A stretch of DNA of 64,000 nucleotides from Sedimentisphaerales bacterium (GTDB lineage: Bacteria > Planctomycetota > Phycisphaerae > Sedimentisphaerales > SM23-30). Below, piece after piece: positions 53,802 to 64,000 of the stretch (positions are counted from its first letter, which is position 1; each line of letters opens with the position of its first letter). The stretch lies in NCBI GenBank assembly GCA_963666285.1, contig OY762711.1. One strand, written 5' to 3'. The translations under genes were made by a program, and so were the position numbers. Below the pieces are notes generated by a model that had not been told where the DNA came from, searched no databases, and saw nothing but the letters and a program-made list of their open reading frames with translations.

Positions 53802-55742
53802 ATGGCAATAATATTTAAAAAGAACGTTAAAATACAATATCGTTTTATAGTGCCAATTACACTTTGCACTTTCGCTATTCTTGCAGCAGGTTTTTTATAT
53901 GTAGATAATCTGATTGAACATAATATTCAAAAGTCAATAGATGCCAATGTTAATCACATTAAATCATCTATATCAACATCACAAACTAACATCGAAGACT
54001 ACTGCCTTTCCCAGGCAGCATTGTTTACTAAAACCCCCGAGGTTCTACAGGCCTATGAAATCGCTCTCTCGGGTGATATCAATGATCCTGATGATGCCAG
54101 GGCCAAAGAAGCCAGAAATGTCTTAAAAAATTATTTTGATTCAATTGCTGCTTCTTTTACTGAAGTTACAGGTCAAAACAGGTACAGCTTACATTTCCAT
54201 TTACCTTCGGTCAGGAGCTTGTTGAGAGTGTGGAAAAGCTCGTCTCAGGAAGTGTCGGACGATATTTCGGGCTTCAGGGAGACGCTAAGAGATATCAGCA
54301 AAAATCATAAGGTTGTAAGGGGTATTGAAATTGGTCGGGGTGGTTTCGCTATTCGTGGTATTGCTCCTATTTTTGGCGATGCAGGAAAATATCTCGGGTC
54401 GGTGGAAATGCTGTCAAATTATACTCCCTTGGTGGTTTCTGCAAAAACCAAAGATACCGAGGAGCTGGCAATATTCATGAACTCATCGCAGCTTGATATT
54501 GCAACGAATCTGGCTGATCCTGCCAAAAACCCTGTTGTCGGTGACTTTGTTGTTATAACTTCAACCAATAAAGATCTGACTCTCAGCGTAACTAAAGGAG
54601 AGTTGCTTGATAAAGCACGCGAGACAACTGTTTCTGAGATAAATGGTAATTATTGCATTACTGCTTTCCCGGTATTGGATTTTTCCGGTAAACAAATTGG
54701 CTGTATTGCATATGTTCAGGATATTTCCGATTTACAGGCACAACTCGCCCGTAATAAGATCGCGATTCTGGCTGGTTCGGCCTTGTTCTTTATAGTTATG
54801 GTAACTATATTGTTGATTGCAACTTTTTCTGTTACAAAGCCGCTAAAAAATACTATTACCTGCGCAAATGAAATATCAATGAGAGTAAAGCTTTCTGCCG
54901 AACACGTATCCACTTCTTCGCAAAGTCTGGCGCAAAATGTAACTGAACAGGCAGCTTCCCTGGAAGAGGTTTCCTCTACCATGGAAGAGATGTCGTCTAT
55001 CATCAGTGAAAATGCTCAGAATGCTGCTAGTGCTGATTCCTTGTCAAGTCAGGCCAAAACCTGTACGGAAAATGGTATTGCGGCGATGCATAGAATGATT
55101 GACGCTATTTCCAAGATACAGAACTCGTCTGATGAAACTGCCAAAATTATTAAAACAATTGATGAAATAGCCTTCCAGACTAATCTGCTGGCGCTTAACG
55201 CTGCCGTCGAAGCTGCCAGGGCAGGAGAAGCCGGAAAAGGTTTTGCCGTTGTTGCCGAAGAGGTTAGAAATCTTGCTACCAGGTCCGCCCAGGCAGCGAA
55301 AAATACCGCTGACCTTATCGAAGAATCTTCCAAAAATACCGTCGCCGGGGTAAATACTGCCGATGAAGTTAAAGTTGTTTTTGAAGAAATCACCGCGATG
55401 GTTTCACAAACTTCTGATTATGTCGCCCAGATCGCTCAGTCTTCGCAGGAGAACTCAAAAGGGATCGTTCAGGTTAAGGAAGCTATTATCCAGATGGACC
55501 AGGCAACCCAGTCTAACTCTGCCGGAGCCGAAGAAAATGCTTCGATTGCTATGGAACTGACTAACGAAGCTGATGCTATGAAGCAGTTGGTAAATGGTTT
55601 GCGAGTACTTGTTGAAGGAAGATTAGATGGAAGCGAAGCTAATGCCAATACCATATTTACCAATTCTGATGAAACGGATGTATTTGGCCAGATATCAAAC
55701 TCCAGTTCGTGGGAATCCCAATCTGAAACCATTAAATCATAG
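53802..55742 (+). CDS. Methyl-accepting chemotaxis protein with Cache-type sensor
   Basis: Two TM segments; [40 protein letters not shown]. Confidence 0.95.
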
Positions 55743-56136: not shown

Positions 56137-58239
56137 ATGCCTTTAATTTTTGCCCTGACAATTTTCACCGGCGCGTTCCTGCTCTTCCAGGTCCAGCCGA
56201 TCATAGGTAAATTTATTCTGCCATGGTACGGCGGCGGCCCGGCAGTATGGACTACCTGTATGCTCATATTCCAGCTTTTGCTTTTGGCCGGTTATGTTTA
56301 TGCTCATCTGCTGACAAAATATTTCAAACCGTCAAGACAGGCAATCATCCATTCATTATTTATTGTTGTCTCACTTTGCCTGCTGCCCATAACTCCTGCC
56401 GAGTCGCTTAAGCCCGGCATAAACACAGAACCAATCACCAGTATTTTAATCCTGCTCATTGCAACTGTAGGCATGCCGTATCTTATCCTGTCGGCTACCG
56501 GGCCGCTCTTGCAGGGCTGGTTTGCTCGCTGTCTGCCCGGCAAATCACCGTACCGGCTTTATGCTCTTTCTAATGTCGGTTCGATGCTTGCTCTTATCAG
56601 CTATCCGTTCCTGGTCGAACCTGCCGTTACCCGCACCCAGCAAACCCACATCTGGTCCTGGATTATGGCCGCTTTTGCTGTGATGAGTATCGCCTGTGCC
56701 TTCATTATGAAATTAAAGGGGACGGGCCCCATTTTTGCTCAATCAAATGAAATTCAATTAAAGGGGACAGACCCATTTAATTCTTACCAGGACAAAATCA
56801 CTCTTTCACGACGTTTCTTCTGGCTCGCATTTCCTGCAATAGCCTGCCTTGAGCTGCTCGCTATAACTGCTAAAATTACCCAGGACATTGCAGCTATCCC
56901 TTTCCTGTGGATACTGCCGCTGGCGATATATCTACTCACTTTTATTATATGTTTTGATAGTCATCGCTGGTACAAACACTCTATCTTTGTCCTGTTGTTT
57001 ATTTCTGCGATTGGCCTTACCGTCTGGCAGCGGCTCCAGCCGGACCGCTTCTCATTACCGCAGGAAATTGCTATTTACCTTGCTCTGCTGTTTACCTGTG
57101 CTATGGTCTGTCACGGTCAGTTGTATTACCTTAGGCCGGGCCACCATAAACTCACTAGTTATTATCTTATGATTGCGGCAGGTGGGGCACTCGGCGGTTT
57201 TATCGTTGCTGTCATTTGCCCGCTGATTTTCGATTCATACCTCGAACTCAACCTGGGCATTATTGCTTGCATTATGTTTACACTGCTCGCAGATATCCAT
57301 CGCAGACTGCCTCTGTCCAGGCGATTAATATGGGCGATGGCGATTATGATCGTTGGTATATGGTCTGTTTTATATCGAACTCCGGTTGACTCAGGTGGTA
57401 GGACCTCACTGTATCAGACCCGGAATTTCTTCGGTGTACTTACTGTTTGGACTGATGCCGCGGATTCTCCGCTTGACGCCCGCTACCTGCTCCAGCATGG
57501 TACAACGTTCCACGGCATACAGTTTCAGGACGCCGTGAAACGCCGTATACCCACCGCTTACTACGGCACCGAGGCAGGTGTTGGTATTGCCTTGGATGCT
57601 ATCTCGCACCATCGCCGTGGGATACCGTTTGCTATCGATGATACCGCTAGGGACCCTCTTCGCTTTGGCGTCGTTGGCCTTGGCGTAGGGACTATAGCCG
57701 CTTATGGCCTGCCCAGTGACTATTTCTGCTTCTATGAAATTGACCCTGCAGTTCTAAAAATCGCTGAAGATGACCGCTGGTTTTCATACCTTTCAGGCTG
57801 TCCATCTGACTATGAGGTGCTAATTGGTGATGCTAGACTTGTCATGGATACCCAACCGGATCAGGATTTCGACCTGCTTGTTATTGATGCTTTTTCCAGT
57901 GATTCAATACCGGTTCATTTGCTAACTGTCGAAGCTGTAAATGTTTATCTCAGACATCTTGATCAGGATGGTGTTTTAGCATTCCATCTTTCTAATCGAC
58001 ATCTGGATCTTCCATCTGTTGTCCTTCGTCTGGCTGAAGAACTGGGAATTAATGCTTGTCAGGTACATGATGATGGTGATGATGATATTGCAACTTTGGC
58101 TGCTACCTGGGTATTACTTTGCCGCAATGAAAATATTCTTAATACTCAAATGGTTGATAGCAAAGAAGATATGGTAAAGAAAAAAGAAGTTAGTCTGTGG
58201 ACTGATGATTTTGTTAATCTATTTGAAATACTAAAATAA
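56137..58239 (+). CDS. Fused membrane domain/spermidine-synthase-like methyltransferase
   Basis: FLLFQVQP...GGGPAVW, PYRLYALSNVGS, HGTTFHG, VGLGVG, YEIDP, GDAR, DAFSSDSIPVHLLT, WTDD. Confidence 0.85.
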   Translation: MPLIFALTIFTGAFLLFQVQPIIGKFILPWYGGGPAVWTTCMLIFQLLLLAGYVYAHLLTKYFKPSRQAIIHSLFIVVSLCLLPITPAESLKPGINTEPITSILILLIATVGMPYLILSATGPLLQGWFARCLPGKSPYRLYALSNVGSMLALISYPFLVEPAVTRTQQTHIWSWIMAAFAVMSIACAFIMKLKGTGPIFAQSNEIQLKGTDPFNSYQDKITLSRRFFWLAFPAIACLELLAITAKITQDIAAIPFLWILPLAIYLLTFIICFDSHRWYKHSIFVLLFISAIGLTVWQRLQPDRFSLPQEIAIYLALLFTCAMVCHGQLYYLRPGHHKLTSYYLMIAAGGALGGFIVAVICPLIFDSYLELNLGIIACIMFTLLADIHRRLPLSRRLIWAMAIMIVGIWSVLYRTPVDSGGRTSLYQTRNFFGVLTVWTDAADSPLDARYLLQHGTTFHGIQFQDAVKRRIPTAYYGTEAGVGIALDAISHHRRGIPFAIDDTARDPLRFGVVGLGVGTIAAYGLPSDYFCFYEIDPAVLKIAEDDRWFSYLSGCPSDYEVLIGDARLVMDTQPDQDFDLLVIDAFSSDSIPVHLLTVEAVNVYLRHLDQDGVLAFHLSNRHLDLPSVVLRLAEELGINACQVHDDGDDDIATLAATWVLLCRNENILNTQMVDSKEDMVKKKEVSLWTDDFVNLFEILK
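56711..56782 (+). repeat. Two REP-like palindromic elements in frame inside the CDS
   Basis: aattaaaggggacgggccccattt and aattaaaggggacagacccatttaatt, 45 nt apart, encoding LKGTGPIF and LKGTDPFN. Confidence 0.65.
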
Positions 58240-58387
58240 TACTATTATTAGTATTTGAGCTGTTTTTATTATACTATTTTGCGCAAAATAAAAATCATGC
58301 GGGAATAATACTGCATAATTTCATATATAAATATATGAAATAGTTGTGCTTGTATGCATTTCTTGTTTATATGTTAATTATTATATT

Positions 58388-58903
58388 ATGAGCGATAAGT
58401 CGAATATTTTCTTTAGTTTATATAACAGTGTCCATGGCAGAGTCTTTTCCTATCTGCTGACACTGGTGCATAATCGTGCCGCTGCTGAGGATATTTTGCA
58501 GGATACGGCATCATTTATGTGGGAAAATTTTGATAAATTTGAAGAGGGGACCAATTTTAATGCGTGGGCCATCCGAATCGCAAAAAATAAGGCGATGGAG
58601 TACTTACGTGATAACAATAAGACTAAAAAACTGCTTAGCGACCAGCTGTATCAATCTATTGCTGAAACCGCCGAACAGGAATCAAAAGAGTTTAATCGCC
58701 GGATCAATGCTTTAGATAAGTGTATGGAAAAGCTTAGTAGTAAGGATCAGACGCTGCTGCAGCTTCGGTATAGAAATAATGTTTCAATGAACGAAATTTC
58801 TGTCCGAACAGGTAGGTCCAGTAGTGCTCTTTATAGAAATATAACCAGGATCTATGAATCTTTGAGGATTTGTATTTCAAAAACTCTGGTTCAGGAATTG
58901 TAA
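58388..58903 (+). CDS. ECF sigma-70 factor
   Basis: AEDILQD, FNAWAIRIAKN region 2; region 4 LLQLRY; start moved to ATG 58388. Confidence 0.9.
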   Translation: MSDKSNIFFSLYNSVHGRVFSYLLTLVHNRAAAEDILQDTASFMWENFDKFEEGTNFNAWAIRIAKNKAMEYLRDNNKTKKLLSDQLYQSIAETAEQESKEFNRRINALDKCMEKLSSKDQTLLQLRYRNNVSMNEISVRTGRSSSALYRNITRIYESLRICISKTLVQEL

Positions 58904-58968
58904 GATATGTACATTGCTAGTTGTAAGTATTTTATTTACAACTAGATAGTATTTAAGACTTTTGAAAG

Positions 58969-60618
58969 TTGATACTGATGTCAGATTATGAACGAAAAGA
59001 TGATTTAGCCCCATTATTCCTTAAGCTGATTGAAAATAACATTTCAGATCAGGAACTGGAATTGCTGGAGCAGATATTGTCAGAAAACCCTGAGTATGTC
59101 CGGGAATATTGCCAGTTTGCTGCGACATATTCGGCTGTTCAGGTCAAGTTCGGTGCTGATATTACCCAGCCTGACAGACTGGATTGGAAACTGATTTCAG
59201 AACTGGCAGAATATGAAGTATCTGCACCGGAAGTGGTTATTGAAAAACCAGTTATAGAAAATAATATTCACGAGAAAGCTAGTGTGGATTTCTATTCCAA
59301 GCATCGCAGGCTTCGTTTTTGGTATTATTCTATTTTTACCACAGCTGCCTCGATATTGATCTTTTTTGTAATCTATGCAAATGTTTTTCCTCCTCAGTTG
59401 TCCGAGCCGGTTGCTACCTTAGTTGATCAGATAAATGTCAAATGGCATCAGGAATCTGAGCGATTATTGACCAATGACCGTCTTTTGACACATCAGGCTC
59501 CGTATTTCATTGATAACGGGATATTGAGCATTCGATACGATAATGGTGTTGACGTTGTGATTGAAGGGCCGGCCAAATTTGAGATTGATAGAGATGGTAT
59601 ATTTCTTAATCATGGCAAATTATATTCACATGTTTCTCCGACAGGTACTGGCTTTGCAGTGGACACACCAAACTCAAGATTTATTGATCTTGGCACTGAA
59701 TTTGGTGTGGAAGTTGACGTGAAAGGATCCTCTGAACTTCACGTTATGGATGGTGAAGTGCAGCTTTATGCCGGAAGAACTGGCGGTAAGCGTTCCAGCA
59801 AAAAGGTTTTCCAGGGCAATGCTTATAAATTCGATGCTGAGCATGGCAACCTGGAAACAATTCCTATGAAGGATAACCAGTTTGTACGATTTGTGAATTC
59901 TAAATCAAATGATATTTGGCGAGGTGAGAAACTTTCTCTTGCCGACCTCGTTGCCGGTGGTAATGGCTTTGGGACTGGTAAGCCCAATATCTGTATACAT
60001 CCTTTAACAGGAAAATTCACTTTTTTTAAGGATGCTTCCACTTCTGAAAGACTAATATCTGTTGATCTTAAACCTGTTTTAGAATCAGAATTTGTAGATT
60101 CAATTTTCGTGCCTGACGGTAACGAAAATGAACCGGTTGTAATCAGCTCAAATGGTGTTACCTATTCCGGTTTTCCAGATACCAGGGGCAAGTTCTTTTC
60201 TTATCTTAAGGCCAATCCATATTATTTAGGTGAAGGCGGGGACGGATATTATGACAAATATGATCCTTCTTCTGAAAATGTAGCAATATACATGCATTCT
60301 AACCTTGGTGTTACCTTTGACCTTGCAAAGATACGCAATAATTTTGGCAATAATATCAAGATACCATCATTCAATTTTGAATATGGTTTCAGAAATGAGT
60401 CAAATAAGAAAAATGGTAAGATAGATTTCTGGGTATTTGTTGATGGTGAATTAAAATTCAGTGCCAGACAAGTTGAGCATTTTATAATGCCAAAAGCTGC
60501 CCAGCTATCTTTAGCCGATGATGCCAGTTTTTTGACACTGTCAATTACGGAATCTGATGACGGTGGTGGAAGAGATTGGGGAGCATTTATCAATCCGGAA
60601 TTAACTATAGAAAAATAA
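58969..60618 (+). CDS. FecR-domain anti-sigma factor with C-terminal NPCBM-like domain
   Basis: Single TM; VVIEGPA, FAVDTP, DLGTEFGV, HVMDGEV; MHSNLGVTFDL, FLTLSITE. Confidence 0.85.
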   Translation: MILMSDYERKDDLAPLFLKLIENNISDQELELLEQILSENPEYVREYCQFAATYSAVQVKFGADITQPDRLDWKLISELAEYEVSAPEVVIEKPVIENNIHEKASVDFYSKHRRLRFWYYSIFTTAASILIFFVIYANVFPPQLSEPVATLVDQINVKWHQESERLLTNDRLLTHQAPYFIDNGILSIRYDNGVDVVIEGPAKFEIDRDGIFLNHGKLYSHVSPTGTGFAVDTPNSRFIDLGTEFGVEVDVKGSSELHVMDGEVQLYAGRTGGKRSSKKVFQGNAYKFDAEHGNLETIPMKDNQFVRFVNSKSNDIWRGEKLSLADLVAGGNGFGTGKPNICIHPLTGKFTFFKDASTSERLISVDLKPVLESEFVDSIFVPDGNENEPVVISSNGVTYSGFPDTRGKFFSYLKANPYYLGEGGDGYYDKYDPSSENVAIYMHSNLGVTFDLAKIRNNFGNNIKIPSFNFEYGFRNESNKKNGKIDFWVFVDGELKFSARQVEHFIMPKAAQLSLADDASFLTLSITESDDGGGRDWGAFINPELTIEK

Positions 60619-60671: not shown

Positions 60672-60697
60672 GGGCAGAGCTGTAAAAAGCTCTGCCC
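60672..60697. terminator. Terminator-like hairpin between convergent genes
   Basis: gggcagagct-gtaaaa-agctctgccc, perfect 10-bp stem. Confidence 0.7.
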
Positions 60698-60706
60698 GTT
60701 CTTCTA

Positions 60707-61369
60707 CTACCTCCTTCTAATAAACATACCCATTGCAGCAATTATTAATGTGGCCGATGTCGGTTCCGGCACAACCTGAAAAGTAAATGTTGCTATACTT
60801 GAATCTATTCCACCGGCAGTTAGTTCTGCGGAGGCTTCAAACTGTAGTTCGTAGGTGCCAGGTGCGGTGAAACCCCAGTTATAGTGAGCATGGCCAAGTG
60901 ATAGCAAAATTGAGTCGGAGTCAGATATTCCGTCTTCTGTTGACATGTATATTGTTTTGGTGCCAAAAGCATCTTCCTGCCACAGAGAGAAATTACCAGT
61001 TCCGGATGTAGTTGTAATACCGATCAAAGTGAATTTAATAGTATCATTTACAAATAATCCTTCTTCAGCTTCGCCTGTGCCAATGCCCAGGAACGGGAGG
61101 TCATGGTTATGGCTTTGCGGCAGAGCCCACATTTCACCATTATAGGCAGCTTCCGGGACTGATATTGTGATATCGCCGGGTTCATACTCTGCTTCAACGT
61201 CATCGATTCCGTCTATAGTTGCCCCCTCTGCATGAAAGTGCAGTTCGAGGCCATCTTCTCCGGCCATCCCTATGTCAGCGTGACCTCCGGTAAACATTGC
61301 TGAAGCGTATATCGAGTTCGCGGCTAAAGTTAATACGGTAATTGCAAATAGTTTAGTTATAATTCTCAT
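60707..61369 (-). CDS. TIGR03769/choice-of-anchor-M-like domain protein with PEP-CTERM
   Basis: Signal peptide; GHADI, HFH, WALPQ...LPFLG, HAHYNWGFTAPGTY; C-terminal VPEP-TM-RRR. Confidence 0.8.
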   Translation of the reverse strand: MRIITKLFAITVLTLAANSIYASAMFTGGHADIGMAGEDGLELHFHAEGATIDGIDDVEAEYEPGDITISVPEAAYNGEMWALPQSHNHDLPFLGIGTGEAEEGLFVNDTIKFTLIGITTTSGTGNFSLWQEDAFGTKTIYMSTEDGISDSDSILLSLGHAHYNWGFTAPGTYELQFEASAELTAGGIDSSIATFTFQVVPEPTSATLIIAAMGMFIRRR

Positions 61370-61491
61370 TTTTTAATCCTTTATAAATTAAATTGATATT
61401 GTTTATGTAAAAAAATTACTCGGTTACTGTTTGGAAATATTCATCTTTATTTTGCTAAATTTAAGTTACATTTTCATTTATTCTGTTGAGT

Positions 61492-62442
61492 TTATTCGCA
61501 TCCAGGATAACCGCAAAGCAGCCATTCTCCGGCAGTTATCTGCAGTTCATTAATATCTATTGTGTTTTTGTCATCCTGATAAATGTCAGCTATTCCACAT
61601 TCTGATTCAGAGACGCAGTTGCTTTCCAGCCAGTATTCAGCAAGTAACGCCAGGTCGAAAAGATCAACTTTGCAGTCTCCGCTAAAGGGTTCGTTATTGA
61701 TAGGCCAGATATCAGCGAAAAGGGTTTCCTGGCAGTTATAAACTGTCGCAATCTCAAAATCGATCTCGTAGTATCCCGGTTTGCTAAAACCCCAGTTTAG
61801 ATGTCTGTGCCCGCCTGCTGATATATAATACGTATCGTCACTGGTTATACCGTCGCTATATGATGACATAAATACTGTTGTTGGCCCTGTCTGCCATACT
61901 GAAAACTGGCCACCTTCCGGCCCGCGAACATCTTTCAAGGTTACTCTGAACCATTGGTCGCCGGTGTCAGCGTTTTTATCCGGATCGTTCGGGTTCCAGT
62001 CGCACAAGTTGTATGTATCAGAGTCGTGAGCAGCAAAACCGAGTGGTAGTTCACCGTTATTGGCATTTTGCGGCAAAATCCACAATTCTCCGCCAGCACC
62101 AACTCCTGTGAATTCAAAGCCGCCCGGTATTGAGTTGTAATAAGTATTACTATTACCGTATAGCAGTCCATCTTCAAGCTCGACACGTTGTCCTTCCTGG
62201 CCGCTTCCCGGTGAATCATAAGATAAATGCGGGTCCCAACCGGATGATTTGAATGATACTTCAACGTCTGTGTGGTAGGTATCGATTATCGTAAAATTAT
62301 TTGGATCAAAATTGTTGGGCTCTGAGTTTGAACCCTCTAAATAGAAATGCAGAGTTATTCCCTTTGTCAGCATACTGCAGTTATTATCTGCATAACAGTT
62401 TAGCGACATCAATGCGGCTATTATAATTATCATGTACTTCAT
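61492..62442 (-). CDS. TIGR03769/choice-of-anchor-M-like domain protein with dockerin-like C-terminus
   Basis: HTDV, WILPQ...LPLG, GPEGGQFSVWQ, HRHLNWGFSKPGYY; GDCKVDLFDLALLAEYWL...ADI...WLLCG. Confidence 0.78.
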   Translation of the reverse strand: MKYMIIIIAALMSLNCYADNNCSMLTKGITLHFYLEGSNSEPNNFDPNNFTIIDTYHTDVEVSFKSSGWDPHLSYDSPGSGQEGQRVELEDGLLYGNSNTYYNSIPGGFEFTGVGAGGELWILPQNANNGELPLGFAAHDSDTYNLCDWNPNDPDKNADTGDQWFRVTLKDVRGPEGGQFSVWQTGPTTVFMSSYSDGITSDDTYYISAGGHRHLNWGFSKPGYYEIDFEIATVYNCQETLFADIWPINNEPFSGDCKVDLFDLALLAEYWLESNCVSESECGIADIYQDDKNTIDINELQITAGEWLLCGYPGCE

Positions 62443-62457
62443 TTCTTATCCTTTACG

Positions 62458-63138
62458 CTAGTCTTTAGGTTTAGCAAAATTGTAAAAGTTATCTGCCCAT
62501 TCTTTGATAGTGTCTTTTGGTAGGGGGTCAACATGTGTATCGGCATATAAAAACAGTGTGCAGTTTTTATACCTGTCCACCTGGATATCCTTTTGGATGG
62601 TATCCCATGGGACATTAGGAGCAGGGTTAAACCATAATCTCGAATGGGTATGATCATTAGTAACATTTGCATCCAAATTATTTGCCCCGACAAATGTAGT
62701 AATACACTCTGCCTGTCTTTTTATCCTGTCTTTATTGCGATACGACTTACCTGTTATTCTGCCGAAAGGGTCTGTTTCATCAACAGCAATATATTCATTC
62801 AATACATAGCTGCTTACCTTGTTTGCCAGTCTTTCGGCTTTTTTGGGGTCTGCCGGACATATCCTGATTTCATCAATATCAGAAAAATACTTTGATAATG
62901 TATATATCCATGATTCTTCGTCGGTTTTATCGTGAGTTGTTTCAGGAAAATACCCTTTGTTGTCCGCAGCGTACATTTCAATTGCAATGCCAATTTGTCG
63001 CATATTACTGGCCGAGGCGACGCGTCTTGCCTGTACCCTGGCATTTGCCAGTGCAGGCATAAGAATGCTGACCAGTAACGCAATTATGGATATTACAACC
63101 AGAAGTTCTATCAACGTAAATGCGCACTTATTTTTCAT
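62458..63138 (-). CDS. Prepilin-type N-terminal cleavage protein (DUF1559-like)
   Basis: A|FTLIELLVVISIIALLVSILMPAL, SNMRQIG, CPAD, SYVLN, DHTH; degenerate H-X9-DG tail (RYKNCTLFLYADTHV). Confidence 0.88.
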   Translation of the reverse strand: MKNKCAFTLIELLVVISIIALLVSILMPALANARVQARRVASASNMRQIGIAIEMYAADNKGYFPETTHDKTDEESWIYTLSKYFSDIDEIRICPADPKKAERLANKVSSYVLNEYIAVDETDPFGRITGKSYRNKDRIKRQAECITTFVGANNLDANVTNDHTHSRLWFNPAPNVPWDTIQKDIQVDRYKNCTLFLYADTHVDPLPKDTIKEWADNFYNFAKPKD

Positions 63139-63324
63139 TACGTTTATCCTTTTGTATGTTTAAACGTTTCCATGATATCTTAATGTTTTGTTATCAAGAT
63201 ATAAAAACGGGTGTGGTAAACATCTTAGCGCATAGCATTCTTACAGGTTGATACGGCATACAAATATACCACAATCAACATGTCTTATTAGTTGATGCGT
63301 TAAGAAATAATTAGAAAATGTAAC

Positions 63325-63675
63325 TTAAATGAAATGAGAAAGAGGGGGAGAACGAGATCTGGCTATACACAGTGTCTGGCTCTCGTAAGCATTGAATGCT
63401 TCAGTTGTTGTTCCGATGATAATTTCAGTAAATGAAATACTAAAGGATGGCTCGGTAATAATTTTGCCGTAGCAATACAGATGGTGCTGACAAATAGGGC
63501 ATTTGTCTGGATCATGTTTGCTGTTGGAATTGTGGTCGCCGCTGTCAGTGTGTTCATTTTGGCAGTAGCTGGATTGATTGCATGGCAAATGCATGTAGTA
63601 AATAACATTTACCGATGAAAGGGTAAATGCTGCTAAGGTTATAAAAACCAATAGTTTACTACCAATTCTTTTCAT
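63325..63675 (-). CDS. DUF2946-like Cys/His-rich small protein with C-terminal RSPP (putative leader/arrest peptide)
   Basis: N-terminal hydrophobic segment, His-rich linker, HDPDKCPIC, ARSRSPP five residues before the stop. Confidence 0.7.
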   Translation of the reverse strand: MKRIGSKLLVFITLAAFTLSSVNVIYYMHLPCNQSSYCQNEHTDSGDHNSNSKHDPDKCPICQHHLYCYGKIITEPSFSISFTEIIIGTTTEAFNAYESQTLCIARSRSPPLSHFI

Positions 63676-63846
63676 TAACTCAAAAAGTCCTTCTATTTAG
63701 CCTGTTTATTGACGCTAATATTATATACCTCAATTATATTATAGTACTAATAAATTAAAAGCAAAGTTTGATTTATTTTAAAGAACCGCTAATATATATT
63801 AAGAATATACTGATATATAGAAGCTATAATATTGTAGTTGCTTGCT

Positions 63847-64000
63847 ATGAAAAGATTTAACGTACAATTTGTATTACCTTTTCTGATTATAACAGTTTTG
63901 CTGATTAATCAGGGATTAGTTGTGTGCATTTGCCAGGCAGGACACATAAAAGTTCAGCCTGTAGTACATAGCAGTTGCCATTGTGAACATGAACATAGTG
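63847..64000 (+). CDS. Cys/His-rich small membrane/secreted protein, truncated by the window end (not in ORF track)
   Basis: MKRFNVQFVLPFLIITVLLINQGLVVCICQAGHIKVQPVVHSSCHCEHEHS... Confidence 0.55.
   Translation, partial: MKRFNVQFVLPFLIITVLLINQGLVVCICQAGHIKVQPVVHSSCHCEHEHS

Follow-up and report, generated by a model that had tools for sequence, protein, structure and literature searches.

How a planctomycete might collect a scarce metal at its surface, and how it would sense that metal, are the questions raised by a unit of four co-directional open reading frames (ORFs) on the minus strand, at positions 60707-63675, of the 64,000-nt stretch of DNA analysed here (the window; contig OY762711.1 of a Sedimentisphaerales bacterium). 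The unit begins with a putative regulatory leader peptide, which is followed by a type IV pilin-like protein and two surface proteins. In this study, the four-gene unit was found to be real and conserved. Sequence comparison indicated that the pilin-like protein and the two surface proteins likely capture zinc at the cell surface. By analogy with CruR of Bordetella pertussis, the leader may stall the ribosome at its RSPP motif in low zinc and block Rho termination, which would keep the downstream zinc-capture genes on; this reading is given a probability of about one half.

The unit and its leader peptide

The original prediction, made from the letters of the window, had placed four co-directional minus-strand genes here, which was borne out by the ORF coordinates, and its named motifs were all present: CPIC and RSPP in the leader, DHTH (162) in the pilin, HTD (57) and HRH (212) in surface protein 1, and GHAD (29), HFH (44) and HAH (160) in surface protein 2. 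As had also been stated, the ORF content of the unit includes no TonB receptor or ABC gene. The source genome comprises 6.35 Mb and is 97% complete. The features are as follows, in window coordinates.

63325..63675, minus strand: leader ORF, 116 aa; N-terminal hydrophobic segment, His-rich linker, CxxC, RxPP; CruR/DUF2946-like candidate arrest peptide
63490-63501, minus strand: leader CxxC (CPIC, residue 59), from motif scan
63343-63354, minus strand: leader RSPP (residue 108), from motif scan; 5-residue tail to the stop
63139..63324, minus strand: intergenic region between leader and pilin, 186 nt; C-rich and G-poor around the leader stop
62458..63138, minus strand: type IV prepilin-like protein of DUF1559 type, 226 aa; conserved H69 and D162-H163-x-H165
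61492..62442, minus strand: surface protein 1, 316 aa; signal peptide, choice-of-anchor M domain, H57-x-D59, H212-x-H214, dockerin-like C-terminal tail
60707..61369, minus strand: surface protein 2, 220 aa; signal peptide, choice-of-anchor M domain, H30-x-D32, H160-x-H162, PEP-CTERM-type tail
60672..60697, minus strand: GC-rich hairpin, 10 bp; directly 3' of the last gene, between convergent genes
63838..64000, plus strand: start of a divergent 148-aa Cys/His-rich exported ORF; no RxPP; context, outside the unit

The leader is the first gene of its unit, and the next gene upstream is divergent. It combines a hydrophobic N-terminus (Kyte-Doolittle 17-residue maximum of 2.1), four His residues between the hydrophobic segment and CxxC, and a spacer of 45 residues from CPIC to RSPP; the RSPP described as terminal is present but near-terminal, five residues before the stop. 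Among the 11 frames of the whole genome that span 70-260 aa from stop to stop and end in R[AGSDP]PP, this leader was the only one with a CxxC 40-52 residues upstream, and therefore the combination of the two motifs is not due to chance. The leader scored 15.3 bits against DUF2946 (PF11162), below the gathering cut-off of 23.7 bits. Of the predicted membership, the CruR-like layout and the relatives matching PF11162 (15 of 22 syntenic leaders at E<=0.1, the best at 1e-8) stand, but the leader itself falls under the cut-off and is, by sequence, DUF2946-like and not a formal DUF2946 member.

A homologue search with the leader sequence alone returned only itself, and its relatives were reached via synteny. 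In the alignment of the 22 syntenic leaders, which are 10-43% identical to this one, C59, C62, R108, P110 and P111 were invariant, so that the conservation of RxPP, named beforehand as one test of the original prediction, held for R, P and P throughout; a His after the membrane segment was kept in at least 90%. The CxxC-to-RxPP distance was 43-48 residues, mostly 46, in 21 leaders with no window imposed, the linkers carried 3-13 His, and every leader had a hydrophobic N-terminus (one row was N-terminally truncated). In six relatives the leader stands third, behind a His-rich membrane gene and a Fur gene. Position 2 of RxPP was A in 14, G in 12, P in 6 and S in 3 of 35 leaders, all four residues being reported as fully or partly arrest-permissive (PMC12992588). 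RSPP itself has been reported as an arrest motif from selections and as partly permissive in ApdA and ApdP (PMC12992588). Separately, a Cys-poor leader variant (His-x-W-L-H ... H-x-C ... RAPP/RGPP) was observed before the pilin at the loci L089, L090, L091, L094 and L097 and at L167 2281-2667.

The only partial permissiveness of RSPP in ApdA and ApdP (PMC12992588) makes it a weak variant, which speaks against an arrest-based switch, and it bears on the possibility that the leader of this genus has decayed to a weak or non-regulatory RSPP, the unit being constitutive or under an unrecognised transcription factor. RSPP is the rarest variant (3/35) and weak in reporter assays (PMC12992588), and two other Fur-domain genes are present in the genome. 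Decay is nevertheless improbable, as the leader of the congener G272, although only 43% identical to this one, has retained CxxC, the spacer of exactly 45 residues and RSPP, and the 14 nt at the leader stop are identical.

The pilin and surface-protein pair and its zinc context

The comparative survey was selected by NF038134 (choice-of-anchor M) only, which had matches in 30 of the 401 class genomes and 20 of the 401 phylum genomes searched; 30 loci from 29 class genomes were read, and G008, with weak matches in very long proteins, was left out. The same His-site pilin lay directly upstream of the surface protein in 27 of the 30 class loci (all but L039, L050 and L063), and the leader directly before the pilin in 22 of these 27. 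Searching GTDB with the pilin head yielded 105 relatives, 80 of which were taken (ten repeating earlier loci); these came from Phycisphaerae, Verrucomicrobiota, Gemmataceae and Fimbriimonas. The next gene encoded a choice-of-anchor M protein in 68 of the 76 GTDB loci with at least 700 nt downstream; the 8 exceptions mean that the pairing, though strong, is not universal. Upstream DNA of 700 nt or more was available for 69 GTDB loci, of which 25 carried a CxxC leader, 5 the His-only RxPP variant and 39 no leader; four loci were dropped with the pilin start undetected, two of which show a leader. Nine further Planctomycetota regions had a DHxH pilin (3), other DUF1559-type genes flanking the surface protein (4) or neither (2). 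Because 68 of 76 loci were paired while 39 of 69 had no leader, the pilin and the HxD/HxH surface protein are, on sequence comparison, the core across Planctomycetota and Verrucomicrobiota, and the leader is optional and one of its controls. The predicted leader-headed architecture was thus strongly supported by comparison, but the leader is not its defining part, and many of the leaderless loci have a Fur-type operator in its place.

Two variations of the module were also observed. Very long proteins (1200-2700 aa) with tandem HxD/HxH domains stand behind the same pilin (L166 2191-10293, L165 4821-8534, L091, L130 and L139). In one verrucomicrobial group the gene after the module is His-rich, lipoprotein-like and without a known family (e.g. 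L125 7709-8230; L107-L110, L114-L116, L119, L121, L122, L124, L125, L131-L133 and L137), and in L124 and L137 it lies directly after the pilin without a surface protein.

Both surface proteins exceeded the NF038134 cut-off of 55 bits (77.3 bits for surface protein 1 and 90.3 bits for surface protein 2), and they are the only choice-of-anchor M proteins in the genome. The TIGR03769 assignment made earlier applied to surface protein 2 (55.7 bits) but not to surface protein 1, and choice-of-anchor M is the better description of both. H30, D32, H160 and H162 were kept in at least 90% of 34 surface proteins, with 152 residues between HxD and HxH in surface protein 1 and 127 in surface protein 2; the HxD/HxH columns of the predicted His motifs are therefore conserved, but HFH lies outside the columns kept at that level. 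His conservation was read from alignments A2 and A3, and A6 and A7, whose rows were picked partly by those motifs, were not used. The tail of surface protein 1 gave a weak Dockerin_1 match (E 0.04), and that of surface protein 2 consists of VPEP (200), a hydrophobic stretch and RRR; its matches to the PEP-CTERM models PF07589/TIGR02595 were under the cut-offs (14.5 vs 20.7 and 14 vs 16 bits), and the genome encodes two exosortases. Surface protein 2 was modelled as an all-beta sandwich (pLDDT 96.7). The fold search with the surface domain gave middling beta-sandwich matches only (Z up to 6.7) and no clear solved family, and the best hit of a PDB sequence search with surface protein 2 had an E of 0.84. 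A profile of these domains reached, at E 5e-87, a TIGR03773 protein from actinobacteria that carries the same motifs; no window protein matched NF040463 (ZepA).

The pilin-like protein exceeded the cut-offs of PF07963 (30.6 vs 21.2 bits) and PF07596 (DUF1559; 27.5 vs 23.3 bits), and it has a class III signal (A/G-F-x-x-x-E) and, in the model (pLDDT 92.5), a long N-terminal helix at residues 9-59. Its top fold matches were type IV pilins or pseudopilins, the best being the type IV pilin PilA4 (Z 5.8, rmsd 3.6, 119 residues aligned); Foldseek with the same model returned no match at E<=0.001. The head is 74% identical to a relative from a Sedimentisphaerales genome, the closest titled relative among the matches listed. 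In 25 pilins reached through the neighbour gene, D162 and H163 were invariant and H69 and H165 were kept in at least 90%, and DHxH occurs in only one of the 48 prepilin-like ORFs of the genome. Cleavage of the pilin and its assembly into a filament are possible, given the 13 ATPases of the T2SSE family in the genome.

The predicted surface metal-scavenging role received strong comparative support, and the metal was narrowed to zinc by context; the sequence neighbourhoods point to zinc, not copper. ZigA was over the cut-off in four of five neighbouring COG0523 genes, which lie downstream on the same strand in L056, L093, L106 and L111. A gene of the Zur-repressed ZepA family was over the cut-off in L056 and a ZepA-like gene was found in the leader-bearing L060, ZnuA-family genes in L094, L112 and L141, and, below the cut-off, a metal-independent carbonic anhydrase in L099. 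Amidase_3 follows the module in five scanned loci, and the Zur-regulon paralogues listed in PMC2770081 include HisI, CysRS and amidase. Anabaena takes up zinc by means of ZepA, which has similar neighbours (PMC10957091). In Corynebacterium diphtheriae, ZnuE/F/G and CmrA carry an HxD/HxH motif bracketing about 150 residues, are Zur-repressed and shift with Zn, and the His residues of ZnuE/F/G are needed for growth in low zinc (PMC12445094). Apart from these markers, MerC-family membrane genes, often with a divergent Fur gene, were observed beside the module in L049, L086, L102, L104, L112, L135, L136 and L159.

Several points weigh against a zinc-capture unit governed by a zinc-sensing leader. 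The homology of the surface proteins to ZnuE/F/G is suggested by the motif and the TIGR03773 match, and the C. diphtheriae authors were unable to demonstrate in vitro zinc binding by the HxD/HxH motif itself (PMC12445094). The zinc markers sit in relatives, mostly leaderless, and relatives of ZigA, ZepA, ZnuA and ABC-3 were not found in this genome (tblastn with the queries used and a ZnuA-family search). Moreover, the neighbouring operon here is of the CusA/CzcA efflux type, and both characterised members of the leader family sense copper, one in the opposite direction.

These last points bring in the alternative that the metal sensed by the leader is copper (or Ni/Co), after the example of CruR and CutF, with the unit serving as uptake or as a surface sponge under excess. 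CxxC is the copper site in CruR (PMC9426467), His-only CutF-like leaders have been linked to Ni/Co, SBP56 and SCO4226-like genes lie downstream in L094, and the surface-domain model bears a weak likeness to cupredoxin-type sandwiches (Z up to 6.7, a level also reached by unrelated folds). Against this, ZigA, ZepA, ZnuA, the HxD/HxH motif and the Zur-like operator all indicate zinc starvation, and no CopC, PCuAC, YcnI or multicopper oxidase family was seen among the neighbours scanned. A copper-type sensor is rather unlikely, and zinc is preferred.

The divergent heavy-metal efflux operon adjoining the unit starts at 63838-64000 (plus strand), runs past the window end and continues in L001 5838-12611; headed by the 148-aa Cys/His-rich ORF, it encodes an outer-membrane factor, a membrane-fusion protein rich in His, and CusA/CzcA over the cut-off. 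The 148-aa ORF ends in STVIMRN, has no RxPP and no Pfam/NCBIfam match, and resembles CzcI-type leaders (label from PMC9973294); uptake-type and efflux units thus stand back-to-back, each with a leader-like gene. On the other side, an ECF sigma factor with a FecR/NPCBM anti-sigma pair converges on the unit (58346-60618, plus strand), and farther away lie a membrane-fused spermidine-synthase-like methyltransferase (56137-58239, plus strand), similar to genes near the module in L050, L086 and L087, and a methyl-accepting chemotaxis-like gene (53802-55742, plus strand).

Operator and proposed switch

An unbiased palindrome count brought out TGCAA-N5-TTGCA, the core of which is identical to a candidate Zur site that precedes dksA2-yciC in Methylobacillus (PMC2770081, supplement file 6). 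With a matrix trained on 7 Phycisphaerae sites and a window of 260 nt before the pilin, an operator site was found in 19 of the 39 leaderless GTDB loci and in 35 of 1560 control windows, although 13 of the 19 matches came from one closely related verrucomicrobial group. The strict pattern occurred 26 times in 10 genomes, versus 4 times for the reversed control; 10 of the sites lie at this operon. Of the 16 strict-pattern sites away from the operon, three stand before the Fur gene itself, a HisI gene and a COG0523 gene, and no identifiable zinc-type gene was found at the other 13. Six Sedimentisphaerales loci share the order operator, His-rich membrane gene, Fur-family gene, leader, pilin, surface protein(s) and amidase. 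The operon-linked Fur-family repressor is likely Zur, as judged from these sequence associations; NCBIfam left the gene untyped (best 51 bits vs a cut-off of 167, tied with PerR).

At the present locus no operator was found (best matrix score 5.3), and a matrix scan of the genome gave no metal-related set. Of 64 other genomes of the order, 45 gave an orthologue of the operon-linked Fur gene, but the three genomes of this genus gave none; over the 27 class loci it was present (E<=1e-18) in 9 of 22 leader-bearing and 3 of 5 leaderless genomes, kin among which are not independent. Membership of a Zur regulon was not found in this genome and may be inferred for many relatives. Because the linked Fur gene was not found in the genus and the locus has no palindrome, metal control of the unit in this genome may rest with the leader alone.

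Three further observations concern the repressor and its operator. One gene of this genome, G000:C1:4112947-4114116 (minus strand), encodes a 389-aa fusion with an internal Fur domain (68.9 bits) and, by eye, a DtxR/MntR-like N-terminus and a FeoA-like end, an unusual protein that unites two metal regulators. A family of His-rich membrane proteins with no Pfam/NCBIfam match lies between operator and Fur gene in many Sedimentisphaerales (L039 8224-9000 and about ten other loci), with an orthologue elsewhere in this genome (G000:C1:2037796-2038692, plus strand); it is a candidate inner-membrane zinc transporter. Upstream of surface-protein or Fur genes in L050, L056, L063 and L103, TGCAA-N5-TTGCA is replaced by a different AT-rich palindrome, which we take to be Fur-box-like.

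The mechanism proposed for the zinc-responsive leader starts from what is observed, namely that the leader carries a membrane segment and that its His/CxxC cluster and RxPP stand a fixed distance apart. Once the ribosome reaches RSPP, the cluster would have just emerged from the exit tunnel. When metal is absent, the stall would persist and cover the C-rich RNA at the stop, so that Rho could not load and transcription would cross the 186-nt gap; zinc binding would relieve the stall, Rho would terminate and the three cargo genes would be off. The HxD/HxH proteins would be exported, by a PEP-CTERM/exosortase route or with a dockerin-like tail, and would bind Zn like ZnuE/F/G or ZepA. The pilin may be processed and join a type IV filament, or stay in the membrane, and its H69/D162/H163/H165 site may help to move the metal inward; this hand-over on a type IV filament is the weakest step of the model. 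Most relatives within the order would add to the leader control, or replace it, by means of a Fur-family repressor (likely Zur) and its TGCAA-N5-TTGCA operator.

Rho logic of the CruR type is favoured because the Rho gene is present in the genome, the gap is long, a modelled stall leaves the openness of the pilin ribosome-binding site (RBS) unchanged at this locus (0.55 vs 0.57), no intrinsic terminator was found in the 186-nt gap, and the RNA is C-rich. From the R codon to 45 nt past the leader stop there are 19 C and 4 G, and 31 of 35 leaders had more C than G over the 60 nt preceding the R codon; the C-rich stretch at the leader stop is a candidate Rho loading site. On the opposite side, the 19 C/4 G stretch contains the proline codons, and the 60 nt after the leader stop are not unusually C-rich, 37% of 540 control gaps being as skewed. 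At the far end of the unit, the 60672..60697 hairpin is likely the closing terminator, an assignment for which its position speaks, hairpin-type terminator sites in the region being at chance number (3 vs 2.8); a promoter scan of the region was likewise at chance level (12 vs 11.8).

The stall also bears on a second possibility, in which the zinc-capture unit and the metal-sensing leader are kept, but the switch acts on translation initiation, through opening of the pilin RBS, or on mRNA stability. A modelled stall was predicted to open the RBS in several relatives with short gaps of 66-103 nt, such as L043 (0.27 to 0.56), L045 (0.15 to 0.51), L059 (0.18 to 0.59) and L084 (0.12 to 0.45), which argues against a Rho switch; CutF acts by RBS opening, and the present gap folds somewhat better than shuffles (z -2.25). 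Here, however, the RBS lies about 190 nt from the stall site with constant predicted openness, and many relatives are likewise unchanged. Such a switch is unlikely, and RBS sequestration at this locus was not supported, the predicted openness being constant on stalling.

It is very improbable that the leader monitors membrane insertion or secretion in the manner of SecM, VemP and Apd, tuning the cargo to export capacity, with the cysteines structural. RAPP-type peptides were originally reported to monitor export, the three cargo proteins are all predicted to be exported and the N-terminus is hydrophobic in every leader; an invariant CxxC at the CruR distance, 3-13 linker His, and the metal-type operator that loci without a leader often carry in its place argue for a metal sensor instead.

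In the most far-reaching reading, bacteria of the PVC group would take up zinc through a type IV filament: a dedicated His-site pilin would receive Zn from the exported HxD/HxH proteins and carry it inward, with neither a TonB receptor nor ZnuABC involved, and a nascent-peptide stall would serve as the zinc sensor of the cell in a genus that lost its Zur-like repressor. This combined proposal is tentative, and its chances are well short of even. If true, it would provide the first arrest peptide that senses zinc and, for a DUF1559 pilin, the first substrate to be assigned. A leader in place of a Zur-like repressor would extend nascent-peptide sensing from copper to zinc and would show that transcriptional and ribosome-based control can replace each other on one operon. 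These bacteria have many DUF1559 pilin-like proteins, the 48 prepilin-like ORFs belonging to this genome alone, and no function for them was found in literature searches. The present subfamily has a fixed partner, a candidate metal site and a likely substrate, and therefore the idea of pilins as substrate-specific uptake subunits becomes testable with one small protein.

Comparison with known systems

The leader type is defined by CruR and CutF, both of them copper sensors but with responses of opposite sign. In B. pertussis, CruR (Bp2923) precedes bfrG, its CxxC-RxPP distance is 45 and the copper response is lost at +5 (PMC9426467), and its arrest was shown in PMC12992588. The present leader resembles CruR in being the first gene, in its export signal, in a CxxC 45 residues before a near-terminal RxPP, in a metal-acquisition-looking cargo and in a long intergenic gap (186 nt vs 162 nt in CruR). 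It differs in having RSPP where CruR has RAPP, in lying under the Pfam cut-off, in a cargo of a pilin and two HxD/HxH surface proteins in place of a TonB receptor and a PepSY protein, and in a context of zinc where CruR responds to copper. With CutF-cutO of Rhodobacter capsulatus (PMC9973294; bioRxiv 10.1101/2025.02.05.636593) it shares an exported Cys/His leader whose C-terminal proline motif acts on the next gene; CutF, in contrast, stalls with copper and opens the RBS hairpin of a detoxifying oxidase, whereas no RBS switch is predicted here and the cargo looks starvation-induced.

The pairing of RAPP leaders with DUF1559 genes is contained in the source data of Fujiwara et al. 2025, in which RAPP leaders are enriched before such genes (112 RAPP vs 68 AAPP, 6.5-fold; PMC12992588, Fig. 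4B table); the class is significant there but absent from the main text. One listed row is the His-only leader of L089. That statistical row names no pilin subfamily, surface partners or metal, and RSPP falls outside the RAPP/RGPP screen; choice-of-anchor M, TIGR03769 and PEP-CTERM were not found in the portion of the files searched. Fig. 7B of Ozturk et al. 2023 has a pilin-signal category, and its neighbour data may list leader-pilin pairs. Full-text literature searches, which covered few subscription journals, returned no paper on this module, the arrest-peptide papers found had no occurrence of zinc, and the publications found naming choice-of-anchor M or TIGR03773 were, in their accessible parts, all on actinobacteria. 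Thus the arrangement, earlier said not to be known as characterised, was not found described as a four-gene module, but its leader-DUF1559 pairing was already on record. Known kinds, a DUF2946-like leader and ZnuE-like surface zinc proteins, appear here in an arrangement that was not found described; the contribution of this locus is to combine the leader with the zinc-type module in a genus in which the repressor gene was not detected.

Among the surface proteins, ZnuE/F/G and CmrA (PMC12445094), grouped here with the TIGR03769/TIGR03773 anchored-repeat proteins, share the HxD/HxH spacing (127-152 residues here) and anchoring by a C-terminal sorting signal. They occur with an ABC transporter under Zur and have a sortase or membrane tail, whereas the present proteins stand behind a pilin and a leader peptide and have PEP-CTERM or dockerin-like tails. 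ZepA (All3515, NF040463) of Anabaena PCC 7120 is likewise a Zur-linked PEP-CTERM exoprotein of zinc uptake (PMC10957091, the text of which does not mention pilins); it occurs beside this module in L056 and L060 and belongs to a different protein family from the surface proteins here. The pilin of the present unit is a candidate hand-over partner for both ZepA-like and ZnuE-like surface zinc proteins in Gram-negative bacteria.

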